Origin: Alphaproteobacteria bacterium
GTDB taxonomy: Bacteria; Pseudomonadota; Alphaproteobacteria; CAAHEQ01; UBA3637
NCBI GenBank assembly: GCA_017467335.1
Contig: JAFTSJ010000006.1
Coordinates: 9,847-73,846 of the forward strand
Direction: 5' to 3'
Length of the DNA: 64,000 nt
The first letter of the stretch is position 1; each line of letters begins with the position of its first letter. Position numbers and translations under genes: made by a program. A model generated the notes under the pieces. The model was not told where the DNA came from and did not search any database. It saw nothing but the letters and a program-made list of their open reading frames with translations. Positions 5,757 through 51,498 of the stretch are shown here, one piece after another.

Positions 5757-8699
5757 TTAGAATTTGTATTTCAAGTTAGCCAAACCTGTATGATTTGTAT
5801 AATCGCCTTTGAACAAACCTTCGTATTCAATTGCAATTTCGGCCTTACGATTGATATCTAAACCAACTTTTGCCCCAACTTCAATACCAAATCTATCCAT
5901 ATTTTCCGTTGTAACTTCATAAACTTTACCATTTAATAAGTTAACACGAGTCTTTGTATCAGGTTCAACAAAGTCATATGTAACAGCGGCTCTTAATTCC
6001 GGATACCAAGACAATGATGGCGATAATGTATATCCAATTGTGTACTGAGCACCCAAAATACCTGTTAATGTTTGACCATCAGCAGAACCGACTTTTTGAC
6101 CTAACGAATCTGTGTATCCGTGTTGTTTTGTGTACAAGTAACGCAAACCTAATTCCGGTTTAATAACACCACTTGCCCAGTTTCCAGATACATACGGTCC
6201 CATTTTCCGTCCCAACATGATTTGAGCACCAACAGCATCAACATCATAATCTGCTGATACGCGATGATTAAATACTTTTTTGGTTTCATCATATTGTGAA
6301 CGTGTGTACATAGCTAACCAGTTAGCATAGAACCGATTCGGATTGTATTCTCCGTAAATCATACCCGTATGTGAATCAATTTCCGTTTCACGACCGACTG
6401 AATCACCATCAGCTTTTGTGTAAGCATAAGAAAGACCCATTCTTAACGCTTCGGAAATATGACCATCAAAACCAACGGCTATACCATGGGTATCCATATC
6501 CCAACCTTTACGAACATCATATTTAGATTTACCGTACAATCCTTGTACCCATAAATTTGATTCATGTCGTGGGAAACGATAGAACCGTTTTCCATTATGA
6601 ACATAACCTGTGCGTTCCATTGAATTGTAGAAACGTTCTGAAACAATGGCAGACAAACGACGTGTAATTTCCGTTGCATGTGCTTGAATCAACGGAGAAA
6701 CATCCGGAGCTAATCCATCCAACGCATCCCGATAACCTGACGGGTTGCTGACAGCGTTTTCCCATAATTCTTGTTGAACTTCTTCGGCTTCAGATCCTTC
6801 CGGCATAAAGTGAAGCGGTGTATCATAAATATCCCAACCTTCAGCCGTGTTTGTTTCATTCGCATCACATCCAGGGCATAACAACGTTCTATCCGGTTCG
6901 TCCGGATTGACAGGCGGATTATCAGGATCAACCGGTTGTGCCGGATAAGAAACTTTATATTCACCATTGCCTAACTTTTCAACGGTATATATCCCTTGAT
7001 TTGTTAAAGCCTGTTCAAAATCACCGCCAACCGTTGTTGCATCTAAAACCTTATAGATATACGAATCACCCGGTTTTAACGCATCCTGAATTTTATAATG
7101 CAATTTCAAAGTCGTATCAGTCGGATTTACAGTAACTGCATTCGCAACAATTTTACCATACTTATCTGTATCACGATTAACATGAGTCCGAATTTCAGAA
7201 CCCGTATTGACATTAACCGTATCTGCATAAATAACCCCTTCACCGGCAACATCATAACCACCTAAATCGATTGTTGCATTATTTAATGTTACATTACCGG
7301 TTTTATTTCTTTGTTTTGAGTTTATACCGTTATGTAATTGAATTTCACTGTTCGTAAAACGCATATTTCCGGCATTATAAATATCACCGGATTGGTCAAA
7401 AATTTGACTGACATTAGCCGGTAACTGTGCATCCGTGAATGGATCGTAATCTAAATCGATATCATCATGAACATCACTAAATACCATTTGAGCATTTTCA
7501 GCGTTATAAGCAATACTTCCCAAATCAGCTGTATTACCAACTATTTTAGTATCACCGGTTATAAACATTGACCCTCGGTTATGTAAGGCACCACCGTTAC
7601 CGGTTGCTTCATTACCGGATAAAGTAACATTATTTAAAACAGCTGTACCAACATTATAAACACCGGCACCTTCTTGAGCTTTATTATTAGATAAAGTTGA
7701 ATTATTGATTGTAACAACACCACCATTCGGACGTTCATTGGTTCGACCGGCATTCGCAATAGCACCACCAACTTCCGTTGCTGTATTACCCGATAAAGTG
7801 GCATTATTTATTTCCATTTCTCCCATATTTAAGACAGCACCACCGTTAGCCGTTGCCGTATTGGATGACAATTCATTGGAAGAACCCGTCAACTTAACCG
7901 TATCAGAATTGTAAATAGCCCCACCTTCTTGGGCTTTATTACCGGTAAATGTTGTATTACCTGCCATATTGACCGTACCATCAAGAACAGCCAAACCACC
8001 ACCGAAACTACCCGTTGTGCCTGTGGCTTTATTGCCGACAAAATCTGTCTTACCTTTAAAATTAACCGTTGAATTATTGGCAACAACAACACCACCACCG
8101 ATTGCACTACCGTTTGTAGCCGTTGCTTCGTTTCCAGTAAATGTAACACCTTGATTAAAATCAACCGTTGCGGGTGAAACAATAGATGTACCCCCAACAG
8201 CCAAAGCCCCAGCGGCAGCGGCATAACTACCACCACTGTTAGATACGCCACTGGTAACAGTATTATTTGTAAATGTCGTATCTCCATTAAATGTTAATTG
8301 ACTGCCACCCGCAGTTAAAACAGCACCGCCAAATTGGGTTAAATCACCTGTTTTACCTGCCGGACGATTATTTTGAACAACCTTGTTGCCCGTAAAATCA
8401 GTCGCACCGTTCATTGTAACCGTGCCTTCATTATGAATGGCACCACCGGAAGCATTTGACGATACACCAGAAGCATCTCCATTAGCCGTATTATTTTTAA
8501 ATTGAACATTATCATATGTTTGCGACTGCCCTTGCTCAATACGAGCAACCCCACCATTTGCCGGATATGCTGCATTTCCGTTGGCGTTTGTTTTATTTTC
8601 GTACGTCGTAGCATACGTTTGAGCAACGACTCCCGAACTGACAACCGTCATGATCGTCGTTCCCAATAAAATTGCATATAAACCCTTGCGTGTGTACAT
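5757..8699 (-). CDS. autotransporter with polymorphic-outer-membrane-protein (Pmp-type GGA[ILV]/FxxN) repeats
   Basis: Signal peptide present. More than 10 repeats such as GGAIHNEG…TDFTGNK, GGAIYNS…, GGAVLNMG…, GGALHNRG…. C-terminal beta-barrel domain ends …LANLKYKF. Confidence 0.8.
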   Translation of the reverse strand: MYTRKGLYAILLGTTIMTVVSSGVVAQTYATTYENKTNANGNAAYPANGGVARIEQGQSQTYDNVQFKNNTANGDASGVSSNASGGAIHNEGTVTMNGATDFTGNKVVQNNRPAGKTGDLTQFGGAVLTAGGSQLTFNGDTTFTNNTVTSGVSNSGGSYAAAAGALAVGGTSIVSPATVDFNQGVTFTGNEATATNGSAIGGGVVVANNSTVNFKGKTDFVGNKATGTTGSFGGGLAVLDGTVNMAGNTTFTGNKAQEGGAIYNSDTVKLTGSSNELSSNTATANGGAVLNMGEMEINNATLSGNTATEVGGAIANAGRTNERPNGGVVTINNSTLSNNKAQEGAGVYNVGTAVLNNVTLSGNEATGNGGALHNRGSMFITGDTKIVGNTADLGSIAYNAENAQMVFSDVHDDIDLDYDPFTDAQLPANVSQIFDQSGDIYNAGNMRFTNSEIQLHNGINSKQRNKTGNVTLNNATIDLGGYDVAGEGVIYADTVNVNTGSEIRTHVNRDTDKYGKIVANAVTVNPTDTTLKLHYKIQDALKPGDSYIYKVLDATTVGGDFEQALTNQGIYTVEKLGNGEYKVSYPAQPVDPDNPPVNPDEPDRTLLCPGCDANETNTAEGWDIYDTPLHFMPEGSEAEEVQQELWENAVSNPSGYRDALDGLAPDVSPLIQAHATEITRRLSAIVSERFYNSMERTGYVHNGKRFYRFPRHESNLWVQGLYGKSKYDVRKGWDMDTHGIAVGFDGHISEALRMGLSYAYTKADGDSVGRETEIDSHTGMIYGEYNPNRFYANWLAMYTRSQYDETKKVFNHRVSADYDVDAVGAQIMLGRKMGPYVSGNWASGVIKPELGLRYLYTKQHGYTDSLGQKVGSADGQTLTGILGAQYTIGYTLSPSLSWYPELRAAVTYDFVEPDTKTRVNLLNGKVYEVTTENMDRFGIEVGAKVGLDINRKAEIAIEYEGLFKGDYTNHTGLANLKYKF

Positions 8700-45468: not shown

Positions 45469-45492
45469 TGGAAAAATAATTGATTTTAAAGG

Positions 45493-45536
45493 TGGATGTC
45501 GCGATTTCAAACTTTTGAATACGGCATCCATTTTTT
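45493..45536 (+). terminator. rho-independent terminator of aspS
   Basis: TGGATGtcgcgaTTTCAAActTTTGAAtacggCATCCA followed by a T6 run. Confidence 0.65.
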
Positions 45537-45557
45537 AGATATACTTAACTCTACACA

Positions 45558-45671
45558 CTCCGAGCCAATAATATCAAAGAAATTGATAATTTGTATCGTT
45601 TAATTGAAAGCCTTTCCTTTCAATTACAACTTGAGCAAGTCAGCTAAACCTGCCCTAAGGGCCGGAGGTTG
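45558..45671. repeat. repeat family R, copy R4 (core 3' end + extension); direct repeat of 42416-42528
   Basis: About 113 bp with roughly 10 mismatches by eye to R2 (CCGAGCCAATAAT…AAAGAAATTGATAATTTGTATCGTTTAATTGAAAGCCTTTCCTTTCAAT…GGAGGTTG). Confidence 0.85.
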
Positions 45672-45842
45672 AATCGGATGAGAATTCAACCTTTACCTAT
45701 AAGGGGATAAAAGTTGGATGTAAATTTTATTTTGATTTTAAATCCAGTTCAAGTTGCGGCTTTTGTCTTAAAAATTTTCTTTTACATTGGCTACAATAAG
45801 GTAATCCTATCTTGCTATTGTATTAAAGAATTAGAGGCGGAT

Positions 45843-46454
45843 ATTGGCTACATCAGAGTTTCAACAGATAAACAAACATGTGAACATCAAAAATATGAAA
45901 TTAAACAATTCGCAAAAGCTCAAAAAGTCAAAATTACGCATTGGATTGAAGAAACTATTTCATCCGGAAAATCTTTAGATAAAAGAAAATTAGGAAAATT
46001 ACTTCAAAGTATGAAAGCCGGAGATATCCTGATTTCTTGTGAAATATCTCGTTTGGGGCGTTCCATGTTAGAGGTTATGCGTATATTGGAGACTTGTTTA
46101 AACAAAGAATGTCAGGTCTGGACGATAAAAGAAAATTTTAGACTAGGTGCAGATATTCAATCAAAAGTAATGGCGTTTGCGTTTGGTATATCAGCCGAAA
46201 TTGAACGCAGTTTAATATCACAACGGACAAAATCATCTTTGGCAAACATAAAAGCCAGCGGTAAAAGATTGGGGCGTCCATTCGCGGCAACAAGTAAAAA
46301 ATTAAAACTGTCAAAGAACTCAAAACGAGTCAAAGATTTATTGGATAAAGGCGTTTCAAAAGCTCAAATTGCTAAAGTTATGGGTGTTGGACGCACAACG
46401 CTTCGGCGTTTTATCTCGTCAAGGATGGACTTAAAATGTATTCACTCTCTTTAA
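45843..46454 (+). CDS. small serine recombinase (resolvase/invertase family)
   Basis: Catalytic N-terminus IGYIRVSTDKQ…, …ISRLGRS…, and a C-terminal HTH (GVSKAQIAKVMGVGRTTLRRFI). No ATG/GTG/TTG lies at the expected position. Coordinates assume an ATT start 5 nt after GAGGCGG. The only canonical in-frame start is TTG at 45714, which would add an implausible 43 aa extension. Confidence 0.7.
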   Translation: MGYIRVSTDKQTCEHQKYEIKQFAKAQKVKITHWIEETISSGKSLDKRKLGKLLQSMKAGDILISCEISRLGRSMLEVMRILETCLNKECQVWTIKENFRLGADIQSKVMAFAFGISAEIERSLISQRTKSSLANIKASGKRLGRPFAATSKKLKLSKNSKRVKDLLDKGVSKAQIAKVMGVGRTTLRRFISSRMDLKCIHSL

Positions 46455-46733
46455 CTTCTTGCCCTAAGAAGTGTTTATAGATTTATCCAAAGAATGGGAA
46501 GAAAACAAAATTGTTAATGTAATTTCCTAAAAGTTAAAGTTAACTATGCTGTCACTATGGAAAATTAGCCTGTTTTTTATCGGGGTGACAAAAAGTTTGT
46601 GTACATTCTATCCTAAACAAATTATAATATAAAAAAGTGTGATGCAAGTGTGATTCATTTATATATAAACGACAGGAAATAAAATGTTAAAAAGCTTAAA
46701 AATCAATACTTCTAATGAAAAATGGAACGAGCC

Positions 46734-46951
46734 CCTTCACCCGCTCCAAAATTTAAACGGTTACCATTTGGTGGCCGTTAAATTTTTGAGTGGGCAAGGA
46801 GTAAGGACCCGAGCAGAGGGTTCGGTGAACGAGGGCGATACTTTGCCTGAGTGAATGACGTTGTGCGTCAGCAAACGATCGTGCGGATTGCCCAGAGGGC
46901 AACCAAACGATAAATTGTGCGAAGTATGAGCCAATTTACAATCCCTTCACC
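46734..46951 (+). ncRNA. candidate structured non-coding RNA, class unknown
   Basis: Local G+C is about 50% against about 30% in the flanks. Hand-folded helices are: A 46734-46746/46788-46799; B 46749-46760/46775-46785; C 46805-46810/46818-46823; D 46824-46835/46943-46951; E 46838-46846/46919-46927; F 46856-46860/46866-46870; G 46888-46893/46897-46902. Three G:U pairs work only on the plus strand. Confidence 0.5.
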
Positions 46952-47004
46952 TGTCTTCCGAATTCTTTTATCGGCAAAAGATATACAATATTTTTACAAT
47001 CCGG

Positions 47005-47715
47005 TTATTTTCTAGAATAAGATAAATCTTTCTTACCACAACACACCAAAAGGTTATGATATCTTTTCTGATGAAAAAAATATTTATTATAACCATGCTT
47101 TTCCATATACATCAAAAGGTTATAATATCCTCTAGGTGTTGGAGTCGGCCATAAAACCCCTTCTTCCGGTAATGTTATGACTGTATCAACAACAGCACCT
47201 TGTTTCTTAGCCTCCTTTAAAGTAACTTGATTACTCATAACTTTCAAAAATAGGTCTTGTTCCATCATAATAATTGCAGGATTATCCCGAGGAACCATAT
47301 TTTCCGGCTTTAATAAATTTGACCGGTAAACAAAAACATAAGTATAATCTTTTCTACCAGGTTCGGATTTCTGATTTTTAAAGATAAATTCCGGCAAACC
47401 ATAAGGTGCATTTTTGATCTCGGTAAAAATAATGCTATTTTTAGTAATAATCGGAATAGATGTTTTTTTATTGGGAACAATTTCACAATCGCATCCGATT
47501 TCTTCCTTGCATTCTCTTGCAAGTGCTGAAAGCAATCCTTCCCCCTGTTCCACTTTACCGCCAATCCCACCAAAAGGTAATATAACTTGCCCAAAATCAT
47601 TTTTAATCCATCTTTTTTCAGGTTGAATAACAAAACAAAGTTTATCCCCAACCATAGCAATCATTGCAACAGATAAATCCGCTTTCGGATCGTCAATTAA
47701 TTCTTTAAAATTCAT
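47005..47715 (-). CDS. Nudix-family hydrolase
   Basis: Nudix box GKVEQGEGLLSALARECKEEIGC fits GX5EX7REUXEEXGU. It is the last gene of the three-gene operon, 2 nt after the upstream stop. Confidence 0.75.
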   Translation of the reverse strand: MNFKELIDDPKADLSVAMIAMVGDKLCFVIQPEKRWIKNDFGQVILPFGGIGGKVEQGEGLLSALARECKEEIGCDCEIVPNKKTSIPIITKNSIIFTEIKNAPYGLPEFIFKNQKSEPGRKDYTYVFVYRSNLLKPENMVPRDNPAIIMMEQDLFLKVMSNQVTLKEAKKQGAVVDTVITLPEEGVLWPTPTPRGYYNLLMYMEKHGYNKYFFHQKRYHNLLVCCGKKDLSYSRK

Positions 47716-47717
47716 TA

Positions 47718-48908
47718 TTAACTACCTTCGTTCAAATATGTTTTCTTTTGTAGCGGGCACCTTGGATCAATAGGTGTCTTTGTTGCTAATCTAACACTGG
47801 GGCACCCACCTTGACAAGCATTTACATATGCACAATGTGAACATTTGCTATTCTTGTTTTCAGTTTTGAAATATTCTCTTATTTTTTTAAAATTATAACC
47901 ATTTTTCCAAAGCATTTTAATATCTGTCCCCTTTAATGTTTCAGACGGGAAGTAAGAATCTATAAAACCGCATGGAGAAAAATGACAATTCCAATCAATA
48001 TATGCCGATCTGGTTCCGGCAGCGCAATCTAACTTTTGTCCAAAAACAGAATAATGAGCAGATGAATCATAGCAAAATACTTCTTCTAAATTGATAAAAG
48101 GATTATCATTCCTTAGTTTTCTAACAGCATCATAAAAAAACCAATATTTTTCATCCGGAAACAGAGTAGACAAATTAGAAACCGCTGCCCTTCCTTTAGG
48201 TTTTACACTTCTAATTCTAATTGGCACTTCCAGTTTCTTGCTGATTTTATCCAACTCAAATATCTGATCATATGATTCTTTTGTATTAATAATAGTTGAT
48301 CTTAATTCTGTTTTAATTCCGTTTTCTTTCAATGTCTTAACTGATGATATAGCAATTTTAAATAAACCAGGAAAACATCTTGTTTTATCATGGTATTGTT
48401 CTCCACCATCTAAACTAATAGATACTTTTACTCTGTTTTCCCTTAAAATATTTAATTTTTCTTGTGTTATCGTAGGGAATGTAATTCCAGAAGTACTTGT
48501 TGAAACTGATATCCCGGAATTATTGAATTTTTTAATTAAATCATAAAAATATGGATATACGAACGGTTCTCCGCCACCAATTTTGACCTTTAAAACACCA
48601 AAATCTATAATTTGATTTGAAAGCCTTTCTATTTCTGCTTCATCTATACCTTTTGTATTTGCGGAACCAGAATCAGATAAGCAAAATGGACATTTCAATG
48701 GACACTTTGTACTTGGATCAAGAAAAATTTTTATGGGAGCAGAAAAGGCATCAAGAACTTCTTCATTCCTAATAATTCTTGTTCTGGAATCAAGTTGGGG
48801 TATAGTTTCATTTTGTTTTGTTAATACCAATTCTCCATCCGTAGTAATTCCGATTCCACGAATACCTGCATAATTATACTCATATCTATATATTGCTAAT
48901 TGTTTCAT
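47718..48908 (-). CDS. radical SAM enzyme with C-terminal SPASM-type auxiliary cluster domain
   Basis: CPLKCPFC (CX3CX2C), GGGEP, and C-terminal CAAGT…CGF…CSHCAYVNACQGGCPSVRL…CPL. Confidence 0.8.
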   Translation of the reverse strand: MKQLAIYRYEYNYAGIRGIGITTDGELVLTKQNETIPQLDSRTRIIRNEEVLDAFSAPIKIFLDPSTKCPLKCPFCLSDSGSANTKGIDEAEIERLSNQIIDFGVLKVKIGGGEPFVYPYFYDLIKKFNNSGISVSTSTSGITFPTITQEKLNILRENRVKVSISLDGGEQYHDKTRCFPGLFKIAISSVKTLKENGIKTELRSTIINTKESYDQIFELDKISKKLEVPIRIRSVKPKGRAAVSNLSTLFPDEKYWFFYDAVRKLRNDNPFINLEEVFCYDSSAHYSVFGQKLDCAAGTRSAYIDWNCHFSPCGFIDSYFPSETLKGTDIKMLWKNGYNFKKIREYFKTENKNSKCSHCAYVNACQGGCPSVRLATKTPIDPRCPLQKKTYLNEGS

Positions 48909-48909
48909 T

Positions 48910-50949
48910 TTATATTGAGCCTGTCCTAGATTTTATTGAAAAAACAGGTATTCCAATTTGAGCGGAAAATTCATTAATATGTCTTCCGCTTAAATCAAAA
49001 CCACCTCTAGAAATCATCGCATTCGACACAAAAATAGAATCGATAGGCGTGTTTTCCTTTTTTAGTTTTAGATAATGATTAAGCAAATCATGAAAAACAA
49101 GTAATCCAGCAATCCCGACATTACCACCAAAATGTTCATTTTTAACAGAGGTTATTTTAAGATTTTTAACTTCTTCCTCCGGTTTTAAACAATTTAAAGC
49201 CTCTTGAAAAAACGGCTCAATAATCTCGCCTGTAAAAATATGCGGATAACTTAAATGATGTTTTTTTTGTAATTTCGAAATTTCTTTAAAAATTCCATAA
49301 TCCACATCATCATGCAAAAGTATTCCAAACAATCCAACCGCTCGTTCTCCTGCGTATCTGGGATCTTGTATTTGTTTTGAAGCATCAACAAATATTTGTT
49401 TGATTTTTCCGTCATTGTCTAAGATATCAAGTATAAATTTTGATTTTTCCCCTTCTTTCCATTTATCGGTTAAAATTAAATTAGCCTCAGTTCTGGAACG
49501 TATAGGCATATCATCAATTTTTAATATTATATCACCTTGTTTTATTCCACAAATATCTGCTAAAGAATTTGGAATAACATCTTCTATTTTCGCCTTTAAT
49601 CCTTTTCTATTGATTAATCCAACTGTTGTGATAATCGGCGTTTTAATTTCTTTTCTAAGAGAACAAATTGTATCATCAATTACGCGTAATTCTGAAACTG
49701 TTTGATATACCTGTGGATTATGATGTTTTGTTGCTGTTGGAAGTGCCACACGGATATAGGTATGCGGATTATACTTATCAGCATATCTGACTGTTTCTAT
49801 CACATCCTCAATCGGTATGATTTTGATTGCTGCCACTATAGAAACATCAAACTTTATCCCCAGATCATGCATTAACTTTATAGATGAAATAGCATTTTTA
49901 TGTTCTTCTATTTTTGCCCCCGGCATAATTTTCGAACGCCAATATACATTAGCACTATTCAATGAAACCTGAAATAAGACATTATCTTTTAATTTTTCAT
50001 CTTTTGCAACTTCTTGTAATAGTTCACGAGTTAAATTTCCGCCATGTGTGATAATTGGAATTTGCTGGTCAGGTGTTTTTTGAGCAATCAGTTTCAAAAT
50101 TTTTAAAAAGTCAGGATGTTCTGTCGGTTCCCAATCCATCATAGCAAACCGCAATATCGGATGTGCTCTGCCTGTTTGAGGATCATAATCTTCTAATAAT
50201 GCAGACATATCTTCTAATTTTCTATTCCAATTATAAGGATATTTTATTGTTGATAAATTCCTATCCACATAACAAAAACGACATCCTTGTTTACAATTAT
50301 TAAAAACAAAAGGAGTAATAGCCCTTTGAGCAGAACTCGCATTAACTCTAAAAAAATTCCTATCTATTATCTTTGCTTGGTATGACTGTAAGTCAAATTG
50401 CACATAATTACTCAAGTATCCGTATAATACTTGTAAAAAGTCAGCAGATACACCCTCTGTTTGTATTTCTTTTTCCTCTTTCAAGGTATTTCCGACATAT
50501 TGATTTTCTATAAATTTAATTGTTTTTGGTTCAATATTCTTTTGATTAATATCATATAATGATACCACATTCAAAAGAGTATTCATGACATCATTAAAAC
50601 TATATCTTTTATTTGTCGGTTTAAATGCAGGATATTTTTTTAATGTTTCTAAATAGTTTGAAATGACTGAAATTATAGGTAAATCTTGCGAAAACAGAAT
50701 TTCTGAATATGATTTTGAATCTTGATATGTCGGTATATCCGAACACACGGATATCACCTCGGCTTTATTAATGCTGATATAACTAGGAATTACTTGCTTT
50801 CGATTATTATCATACATTTTAACAAGTATAAGTAAGGAATTTATAAGTCTTCCTTCTGTATTTTTCTGTTCAATCGGATTAGAAAAGTCATTACCATTAA
50901 TGATATCCAAGTAACTGGAAAAATTAGAATCTTTTAATCGAATAGCCAT
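48910..50949 (-). CDS. radical SAM enzyme with internal PDZ domain and DUF512-like C-terminus, plus unknown roughly 200 aa N-domain
   Basis: Start set at MAIRLKD… (GGAGGAAG RBS). Contains CKQGCRFC (CX3CX2C). PDZ-like segment reads …SLADICGIKQGDIILKIDDMPIRSRTEANLIL…. C-terminus reads …HFGGNVGIAGLLVFHDL…ISRGGFDLSG…. Confidence 0.75.
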   Translation of the reverse strand: MAIRLKDSNFSSYLDIINGNDFSNPIEQKNTEGRLINSLLILVKMYDNNRKQVIPSYISINKAEVISVCSDIPTYQDSKSYSEILFSQDLPIISVISNYLETLKKYPAFKPTNKRYSFNDVMNTLLNVVSLYDINQKNIEPKTIKFIENQYVGNTLKEEKEIQTEGVSADFLQVLYGYLSNYVQFDLQSYQAKIIDRNFFRVNASSAQRAITPFVFNNCKQGCRFCYVDRNLSTIKYPYNWNRKLEDMSALLEDYDPQTGRAHPILRFAMMDWEPTEHPDFLKILKLIAQKTPDQQIPIITHGGNLTRELLQEVAKDEKLKDNVLFQVSLNSANVYWRSKIMPGAKIEEHKNAISSIKLMHDLGIKFDVSIVAAIKIIPIEDVIETVRYADKYNPHTYIRVALPTATKHHNPQVYQTVSELRVIDDTICSLRKEIKTPIITTVGLINRKGLKAKIEDVIPNSLADICGIKQGDIILKIDDMPIRSRTEANLILTDKWKEGEKSKFILDILDNDGKIKQIFVDASKQIQDPRYAGERAVGLFGILLHDDVDYGIFKEISKLQKKHHLSYPHIFTGEIIEPFFQEALNCLKPEEEVKNLKITSVKNEHFGGNVGIAGLLVFHDLLNHYLKLKKENTPIDSIFVSNAMISRGGFDLSGRHINEFSAQIGIPVFSIKSRTGSI

Positions 50950-50969
50950 ACTTCCTCCTTCTGTCAAGG

Positions 50970-50998
50970 ATTTTAATACAAACACAACAAAATGTCAA
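50970..50998 (-). promoter_or_regulatory. near-consensus sigma70 promoter of the radical-SAM operon
   Basis: On the minus strand TTGACA-17 nt-TAAAAT, about 20 nt upstream of the RBS. Confidence 0.6.
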
Positions 50999-51013
50999 GA
51001 AAAATTTATTTTT

Positions 51014-51214
51014 TCATGTAGACACGTCATCAATTTTTAATATTATATCCTCTTGTCTTATTCCAAGAATATCTGCTAAAGAATTTTCACAACAACTTTT
51101 TTCACTTTTGTTTATGACTATCGTATACGCATTTTTTAATAAATATTTATTTGTTTCAAAAATGATTGTTCCAAAATCGTTTGTTTTTACAGTATCGGCA
51201 AAGATTCTTCTGTT
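51014..51214 (-). pseudogene. fragment of a paralogue of the PDZ/radical-SAM gene
   Basis: 51020-51085 is about 90% identical by eye to 49508-49573. It translates as …TIVINKSEKSCCENSLADILGIRQEDIILKIDDVST*, compared with the intact …NSLADICGIKQGDIILKIDDMP…. There is no start codon. Confidence 0.65.
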
Positions 51215-51231
51215 TTATTACACTTATTTAA

Positions 51232-51423
51232 AAAGGCATTTTATCAGATATAGCCTTAAATGCAAAAGGAATCTTCAAAAGTTCGATAAATGAAGAAAAA
51301 CACAAAATTTTAAAACTGATTTTATCGAACTCGGTGGTCGATGGAAAAAATCTTTATTTTTCAATAAATAAACCCTTCGATAAATTGCTTTTTTCGAAGG
51401 GTTGTAAGACTTGGTACCTCTAG
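51232..51423 (+). pseudogene. possible C-terminal remnant of a (large serine?) recombinase abutting tRNA-Leu
   Basis: Start-less open frame GILSDIALNAKGIFKSSINEEKHKILKLILSNSVVDGKNLYFSINKPFDKLLFSKGCKTWYL*. It resembles C-termini of 'recombinase family' proteins as I recall them. This is unverified, and it overlaps the tRNA terminator hairpin. Confidence 0.3.
51362..51403 (-). terminator. terminator hairpin downstream of tRNA-Leu
   Basis: AACCCTTCGA-12 nt-TCGAAGGGTT (10 bp stem), followed on the minus strand by TTTATTTATT. Confidence 0.55.
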
Positions 51424-51498
51424 CCGGACTTGAACCAGCATGATCTTGCGATCAACAGATTTTGAGTCTGTCGCGTCTACCAATTTCGCCATAGAGGC
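51412..51498 (-). tRNA. tRNA-Leu (anticodon CAA), class II with long variable arm
   Basis: GCCTCTATGGCGAAATTGGTAGACGCG-ACAGA-CTCAAAA-TCTGT-…GCTGGTTCAAGTCCGGC-TAGAGGT-A-CCA. The acceptor stem has G1:U72 instead of G:C. Confidence 0.85.

Follow-up and report, generated by a model that had tools for sequence, protein, structure and literature searches.

RtT RNA and the tyrT repeats came to light when tRNA genes were first being sequenced, and another E. coli RNA, 3'ETS-leuZ, is a stable by-product of the processing of a tRNA operon trailer/spacer. RNAs of the 3'ETS-leuZ type are short, unstructured sRNA sponges and have neither the multi-hairpin core nor the tRNA 3'-end copy that mark the units described here. 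RtT is described as being released from tRNA operon transcripts, and its Pasteurellaceae members neighbour tRNA genes for Asn and Lys (PMC4986893); the E. coli RNA has been reported to be stable and processed (PMC4986893; bioRxiv 10.1101/2024.07.17.603846). A covariation analysis of RtT with CaCoFold recovered a helix framing a tandem GA (PMC8250186).

Here we describe a relative of these RNAs in a 64,000-nt stretch of DNA (the window) from a low-G+C gut 'Alphaproteobacteria'-type genome. A first-pass annotation made from the letters of the window had proposed a single, plus-strand RNA of about 220 nt, seven helices and unknown class between a serine recombinase gene and a radical-SAM/Nudix operon. 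We consider it likely that the block is instead a tRNA-Gly remnant followed by its terminator and by one RtT-type trailer unit, the whole abutting a mobile module; it is not a new RNA class. Judged by sequence and structure, the window unit is homologous to the 178-bp tyrT repeat and the rttR units of E. coli (RF00391). Across its family, as in E. coli, most units lie directly behind a tRNA gene, on its strand, and close with a repeat of its 3'-terminal sequence; of both features the window copy retains a part. The order of elements is shared: a G-rich 5' strand, a GAACC...GGUUCG hairpin, a small hairpin framed by tandem G.A, a pair of neighbouring hairpins of which the second is CCC-GNA-GGG, a hairpin that varies, then GAGUAAUCC and the tRNA-like end. 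The window copy differs in being tied to tRNA-Gly, whereas the E. coli units are tied to tRNA-Tyr, in residing in an 'Alphaproteobacteria'-type genome and not in Gammaproteobacteria, in its length (~170 nt, with P3, P5 and P6 enlarged), in being single where E. coli has four units in tandem, and in lacking the tRNA and part of the 3' mimic.

A GC-rich, structured block

The block at 46731-46955 has about 50% G+C in surroundings of about 30%, and the G+C fraction of 200-nt windows rose to 0.49 at 46700-46899 and 0.455 at 46800-46999, compared to 0.26-0.33 on either side, which confirmed the GC-rich island seen at first pass inside an AT-rich intergenic region. On the plus strand, 46725-46960 folded with a minimum free energy (MFE) of -91.4 kcal/mol, relative to a mean of -64.7 kcal/mol for dinucleotide shuffles (z = -6.2, none of 200 shuffles as good), and the minus strand gave z = -3.6, values that bear out a plus-strand, multi-helix RNA-type structure. 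Among the helices that had been drawn by hand, A (46734-46746/46788-46799), B (46749-46760/46775-46785) and C (46805-46823) all lay within the MFE fold. Helix D (GGUGA.../...UCACC) was partly present in that fold but is specific to the window copy and not conserved, and helix E (46838-46846/46919-46927) formed if the core was folded alone and was absent otherwise.

When the block was scanned against 4227 Rfam models, no family reached its gathering score and nothing meaningful appeared at E ≤ 10, the best matches being miRNA models on the long hairpin at 21-23 bits, far under threshold. At threshold, no riboswitch or other described Rfam family fits. The label "unknown class" had to be given up, since the 3' part of the block is a distant relative of RtT RNA (RF00391). 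Neither ARAGORN nor Rfam called a tRNA or tmRNA at 46700-46960, where only 16 nt are tRNA-derived, and blastn of the block against phages and plasmids gave no match. A pattern scan of viral contigs returned 0 matches, and a second such scan returned eight (L047-L054), none of which matched any unit by nhmmer.

Several other element types were considered and rejected: a two-piece (permuted) tmRNA, as neither ARAGORN nor Rfam called one, the units occur in several copies and the leader has no T-arm; a MITE with a 9-bp target duplication, as the repeat is tRNA sequence; and an integron-like cassette array, as intact arrays begin with a normal tRNA gene.

A tRNA-Gly 3' end and its terminator

The proposal of one continuous seven-helix RNA failed at the 5' third of the block, which consists of a tRNA-Gly 3' fragment and a terminator hairpin and is the very place where homology between loci breaks off. 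The fragment is an orphan 3' end of 16 nt (46733-46748, plus strand) made up of the T-stem 3' strand CCCTT, the acceptor 3' strand CACCCGC, the discriminator T and CCA. An intact tRNA-Gly(GCC) gene in locus L157 has the identical 3' end, and the motif likewise closes intact tRNA-Gly(GCC) genes in L120, L153 and L123. The body or 5' part of a tRNA-Gly was absent from the whole 64-kb window, both strands searched.

Downstream, an intrinsic-terminator-like hairpin with a T-run, corresponding to helix B, occupies 46756-46789 on the plus strand (terminator scan: 46756-46779 plus AAATTTTTGA) and is the native terminator of the displaced tRNA-Gly gene. Every locus carried a different hairpin and T-run at this position, whether after the tRNA or after the fragment, and the changes in the terminator stem between the window and a sister strain (L004) were compensatory. 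Helix A exists because the 5' strand of the unit is complementary to the tRNA-Gly 3' end, an intact copy of which lies upstream at 46733-46748, across the terminator. The repeated element CCCTTCACC was again found twice, at 46733-46741 and 46943-46951, the first position being 2 nt off the earlier coordinate, and this duplication results from the tRNA mimicry of the unit.

A divergent, orphaned RtT-like unit

We built a covariance model (R1) from 16 units, leaving out the window, L004 and E. coli. It matched the window over the full model at 46788-46957 on the plus strand (25.5 bits, E = 4e-5, the lowest score among full-length matches), matched the L004 copy at 33.4 bits, and matched the four units of the E. 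coli tyrT-tyrV-rttR region at 54, 48.4, 46.3 and 45.9 bits. An HMM made without the window or E. coli found an E. coli unit at E = 9e-6, the L004 copy (97.5% identical to that of the window) at E = 5e-6 and the window copy at E = 0.006 (nhmmer). The Rfam model RF00391, whose gathering score is 45 bits, gave no match on the window copy even at E ≤ 10; against the L153 and L120 units it aligned over the full model with 30.7 and 30 bits (E = 1e-4 in a 149-nt search), these hits sharing GAACC..GGUUCG, AGCGAnAG, CCCGnAGGGCGA and CGAGUAAUCC.

The window unit is a long variant of ~170 nt, in which the P1 5' strand (46788-46799) is followed by P2 (46805-46823), P3 with its tandem G.A internal loop (46828-46853), P4 (46857-46869), P5 (46876-46911), P6 (46912-46937) and the tRNA-mimic 3' end AATCCCTTCACC (46940-46951), all on the plus strand; this end spans the 3' half of the T-loop, the 3' strand of the T-stem and the beginning of the acceptor strand. 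P2 to P6 were all placeable, and P3 keeps G.A/A.G between canonical pairs, matching the tandem GA that CaCoFold recovered in RtT (PMC8250186). Other long variants occur behind intact tRNAs in L077, L096, L115 and L129. After CCCTTCACC/AATCCCTTCACC the window reads TGTCTTCC (46952-46959) where CGCTCCA is expected, and we take TGTCTTCC to be a degraded CGCTCCA. The P1 5' strand gave a duplex energy of -21.2 kcal/mol with an intact tRNA-Gly-type 3' end and -9.2 kcal/mol with its own. Upstream of the unit there are only the last 16 nt of tRNA-Gly and the terminator, with no intact tRNA, and no second unit was found in the 64-kb window; relatives occur in tandems of two or three. The window copy thus belongs to the RtT tRNA-trailer family as a divergent and orphaned member, placed beside a tRNA-Gly remnant and terminator, and is probably a decaying copy of a known type.

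Two further observations concern the variation of this copy. The P3 loop AUACUU (46838-46843) and the P6 loop AAGUAU (46922-46927) are perfectly complementary, only in this variant, which accounts for helix E and makes a kissing interaction a possible candidate. All 10 differences between the window and L004 (411 nt, 97.6% identical) fall in the stem of the terminator, in the 5' strand of P1 or at the first pair of P2 (window 46756-46808, L004:5073-5124), and this clustering suggests patch-wise gene conversion over scattered mutation.

Units follow tRNA genes and copy their 3' ends

A metagenome scan with the conserved hairpin pattern yielded 105 loci, and R1 run over 728 kb yielded 77 matches; 70 units were full-length in the covariance-model search, and unit size in the family ranged from ~115 to 170 nt. 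A same-strand tRNA gene lay within 600 nt upstream in 51 of the 70 full units, namely Ser-GGA (24), Ser-GCU (6), Ser-CGA (1), Gly-GCC (10), Gly-CCC (2), Tyr (4) and Asp (4), and 34 of these 51 reproduce the 3' end of their tRNA at 11 or more of 12 nt. Eight of the remaining units sat at the edge of the searched DNA and 11 were without a tRNA, 9 of which, including the window, were recombinase-linked gut loci. The link once sought with the recombinase or with the Nudix/radical-SAM operon thus gave way to the tRNA gene as the real partner.

Intact tRNA-Gly arrays contained one to three units, each closing in AAATCCCTTCGCCCGC(TCCA). In L120, L153, L123 and L157, the order was tRNA-Gly(GCC), terminator, unit, terminator, unit, with a 168-nt period, and the array period was strictly 168 nt in L109, L136 and L157. 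The tRNA-Ser loci L109 and L092 had the same layout, the unit there closing in tRNA-Ser 3' sequence.

A second unit type was also seen, ending in AATCCAGCCAGCCCAGCCA (L012:4900-5160; L013:4899-5089 and 7261-7450; L015:108-241; L045:524 and 1284-1464). Its end resembles what we take to be a tRNA-Gln 3' end (U1-A72, discriminator G), and it is preceded by another mobile-element junction, ..GTCCGTGTATTACCAGACCTCTCCAGCCAA, and a terminator.

A shared structural plan with covariation

Single-sequence folds of about 25 diverse units, E. coli included, converged on one plan. In this plan P1 is a closing helix between the 5' strand and the tRNA-like 3' strand; P2 reads GAACCC-GAGCAGA-GGGUUC or GAGCCAAC...GUUGGUUC; P3 contains an internal purine-purine run (A.G, A.G, G.A); P4 is a hairpin next to P5; P5, directly adjacent, reads GCCC-GNA-GGGC with variants and is once flipped to GGGC-GAAA-GCCC; P6 is a variable hairpin; and the 3' part carries GAGU/GAAU and then AAUCC. 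Hairpin-anchored counts gave at least 90% canonical pairs and 3-7 pair types per position in P2, P4, P5 and P6, although this parse leans towards structure by construction. On a model-fitted alignment (A4), 80.1% of cells were paired compared to 67.9% in shuffles, and the covariation score was 0.229 compared to 0.098 in shuffles (0 of 500 as high) and 0.045-0.066 in slid controls. Double changes numbered 23 and 19 at the two pairs of P3a and 12, 20, 15 and 3 in P5. P4 and P6, both outside the model and poorly registered, were only 51-57% paired on A4. These alignments indicate that P2, P3 and P5 covary, and the conservation and covariation in relatives that had been named as a check on the first proposal were both seen.

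For P1, the duplex energies of own versus foreign pairings were decisive in about half of the units; the rest are ambiguous, since any tRNA end rich in C and U can pair with a G-rich strand, and P1 as a family-wide helix is not proven by this modelling. The MAFFT alignments A1-A3 were structurally inconsistent, their helix registers being out by 1-2 columns, and RNAalifold could draw nothing useful from them.

The RtT architecture is found far beyond Enterobacteria and Pasteurellaceae, behind several tRNA species, with a 3' end that consistently follows the neighbouring tRNA. The much broader set of units now available for comparison should help to define the real structure, and it suggests that selection acts on the mimicry of tRNA ends.

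How the unit may be made, and what else it may be

On the preferred reading, the plus strand carries first the mobile module (an Mpi-family invertase gene and a 280-nt leader with an outward promoter-like site), which closes at the last 16 nt of a tRNA-Gly gene whose body is gone, then the intrinsic terminator of that tRNA, and then one RtT-type unit. Such units are encoded directly behind tRNA genes, often in tandem, with a P1 5' strand complementing the tRNA-like 3' end, five hairpins (P2-P6) extending from a junction, and a 3' end repeating the T-loop, T-stem, acceptor and CCA of the preceding tRNA. Most likely the unit would be made as a 3' trailer and trimmed by the tRNA-processing machinery, since its 3' end resembles a tRNA end, as in E. 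coli, where the homologous unit leaves the primary transcript of tyrT as stable RtT RNA; such processing by tRNA-end mimicry is the best-supported account of how RtT-type RNAs are made. The orphan in the window could be transcribed only by read-through from the module promoter, and its acceptor-mimic end has decayed.

A broader version, which we hold to be rather doubtful, would make the RtT-type units one family spread over Gamma- and Alphaproteobacteria as well as uncultured bacteria of sea and soil, placed in the trailers of Ser, Gly, Tyr, Asp and probably Gln tRNAs, always acquiring the 3' end of that tRNA and doubling as pseudo-attachment sites for recombinases (here the Mpi-type module). 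The long variant of the window, with its P3/P6 loops AUACUU/AAGUAU, would then be functional and specialised and not a relic.

It is unlikely that the units are DNA-level scars, either att-site duplications or miniature integrative elements, with incidental structure. A duplicated tRNA 3' end is a classic integration signature, the module junctions fall exactly on tRNA ends or unit ends (46733 in the window; the junctions of the second unit type in L012, L013 and L045), and the strict 168-nt arrays would fit as well. The tRNA 3'-end duplications of attL and attR do resemble the 16-17-nt direct repeat that marks the module edge at 46733-46748, but here the second copy of the repeat is part of a conserved structured unit, not of an island's other end, the recombinase belongs to the small Mpi-type invertases and not to the tyrosine or large serine integrases, and no intact tRNA is regenerated nearby. 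Against the scar reading, units from E. coli, gut Alphaproteobacteria and marine metagenomes share the hairpin core, with stems that change by compensatory and G-U substitutions, the strand of the unit is always that of the tRNA, and in E. coli RtT has been reported to exist as a stable RNA produced by processing (PMC4986893; bioRxiv 10.1101/2024.07.17.603846).

Quite unlikely, too, is a cis-acting switch in which the 5' strand of the unit pairs either with the upstream tRNA-type end (helices A and B) or with its own 3' end (P1) and so controls read-through or processing. The mutually exclusive pairings suggested by the first-pass annotation are real as complementarity, in the window and in native arrays, and a terminator-like hairpin lies between both partners. 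This dual complementarity, however, arises because both 3' partners copy one tRNA sequence, so the duplicated tRNA 3' end explains what had looked like a switch; in addition, no conserved junction resembling a ligand pocket was identified, the pairing with the own 3' end is weak in the window (-9.2 kcal/mol), and there is no downstream gene to control because the next gene is convergent.

The recombinase module and its junction

Upstream of the tRNA-Gly remnant lies a 5'-truncated copy of the gene for a 200-aa serine DNA invertase of the Mpi family (45836-46454, plus strand, Pfam Resolvase and HTH_7), contained within the listed ORF 45714-46454; it has neither the ATG nor the upstream region that the intact form has. 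An intact homologue (L007:4149-4751) scored 270.2 bits on the NCBIfam model NF009949, 'master DNA invertase Mpi family', for which the cutoff is 272. Homology of the window to L007 and L009 begins at 45836, and the sequence upstream of the invertase has been replaced at a 10-bp direct repeat, ATTGGCTACA (45786/45843). The listed 246-aa recombinase ORF opens at an upstream TTG (window 45714-45852) and is probably a pseudogene or fusion. Behind the gene, an AT-rich 3' leader of ~280 nt (46455-46732, plus strand), 95-99% identical in L006-L009, L014 and L042 in unrelated contexts, holds a 19-nt recombinase-site-like motif (46592-46610) and an outward-pointing promoter-like site at 46600-46628, where the promoter scan matched the previously noted TGTACA-17-TATAAT at 10 of 12 positions.

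The ~1-kb module with the invertase was 95-99% identical in at least eight other contexts. The shared homology spans 45836 to 46751/46756 and ends right after CCCTTC[A/G]CCCGCTCCAA; in the comparison of the window with these loci, its end falls exactly after CCCTTC[A/G]CCCGCTCCA(A). Past this point each locus has its own distinct hairpin and T-run, followed in some loci by a structured unit closing in a second copy of the CCCTTC-type motif. As homology stops within the 220-nt block, the block straddles a recombination or homology boundary. The A/G polymorphism in the tRNA fragment tracks the tRNA-Gly variant of the host, which places the crossover left of the polymorphic site. How the module came to join the tRNA end we can only infer. 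A recombinase-based genome scan gave 37 loci, nearly all in gut 'uncultured Alphaproteobacteria' MAGs and often in several copies per genome.

By analogy with RNA-guided recombinases, the unit could be imagined to serve the serine recombinase next to it as an RNA partner, as a guide or as a regulator, given that it lies ~330 nt downstream and co-directional in the window, L004, L007, L009 and L014. We regard this as highly improbable and already largely refuted: the conserved module stops before the unit, the module copies in L008, L042 and L010 have no unit after them, 51 of the 70 units follow tRNA genes, and the Mpi-type invertase has DNA inverted repeats of its own and a demonstrable inverton. 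Since its conserved region stops before the unit and a native inverton is present, the module is not the partner of the RNA but a neighbour that uses the tRNA 3' end as a junction and merely abuts it. For the window itself the message is modest, the element being probably a decaying copy of a known type and not a recombinase partner.

Relatives had first been found by a protein search with the translated 56-aa ORF at 46684-46854, after which the contigs were compared. That the G+C rise reflects this ORF as a small protein gene has next to no probability: it is called in ENA/Logan assemblies and has 'homologues' (P0001-P0006), but the similarity is limited to the module leader and tRNA fragment, beyond which sequences are unrelated and of different lengths, Pfam returned nothing for it, more than half of the structured block lies outside the ORF, and stem substitutions are compensatory, not synonymous. 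The 'homologues' are artefacts of the shared leader and tRNA fragment and the ORF is spurious, so the original view of the block as non-coding stands. For annotation, tRNA-linked units of this kind account for GC-rich 'orphan ncRNA' islands and spurious small ORFs near tRNA genes and mobile-element junctions in AT-rich gut genomes.

The intact relatives of the module revealed an invertible segment. About 146 bp upstream of the invertase gene are inverted in L007:3955-4100 relative to L010:836-981 with identical flanks, and the same inversion separates L009 and L013 from L011, L012, L014 and L015; the segment is absent from the window. Its junctions read ..CCAACGAT on one side and ATCGTTCT on the other. 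By this comparison, the segment before the intact invertase gene is a genuine inverton and looks like a promoter-type one in gut 'Alphaproteobacteria' MAGs. The 19-nt motif TAGAATGACCACAAACGTT, whose partner lies at L007:4082-4100, has a third, inverted copy at window 46592-46610 (L007:4909-4927), 158 nt past the invertase stop codon and overlapping the -35 of the promoter noted earlier, so that in intact loci the invertase gene is flanked by inverted repeats, as in the Hin system. At the joint of module and tRNA fragment, a 26-bp dyad, TGGAACGAG-CCCCTTCA-CCCGCTCCA (window 46723-46748), contains AACGAG, which resembles the inverton core AACGAT and the tRNA T-loop TTCGAAT, and this may suggest an illegitimate invertase-mediated joint. 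In L006:1-500, the AT-rich module end and tRNA-Gly fragment run into DNA that seems, by eye, far more G+C-rich, as either an assembly chimera or a transfer into a very different genome would produce.

A variable island around the locus

By Pfam, the block is flanked by the resolvase-type gene on the plus strand (45714-46454) and by a minus-strand operon (47005-50985) encoding a Nudix protein, a radical-SAM/SPASM protein and a radical-SAM protein with PDZ and DUF512 domains; the SPASM protein is nearest to NCBIfam peptide/cofactor maturases, far under cutoff. The Nudix gene and the two radical-SAM genes are convergent with the block. The stretch from AsnRS to tRNA-Leu (51412-51498) appears, from strain comparison, to be a variable island. 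A synteny search with the Nudix protein found near-identical strains only. In the sister strain L004 (387-3839 and 6033-7106, compared with window 45469-45713 and 47718-51400), both radical-SAM genes are absent, and a restriction-modification cluster of two DNA methylases and a BpuJI-like gene lies between AsnRS and the recombinase.
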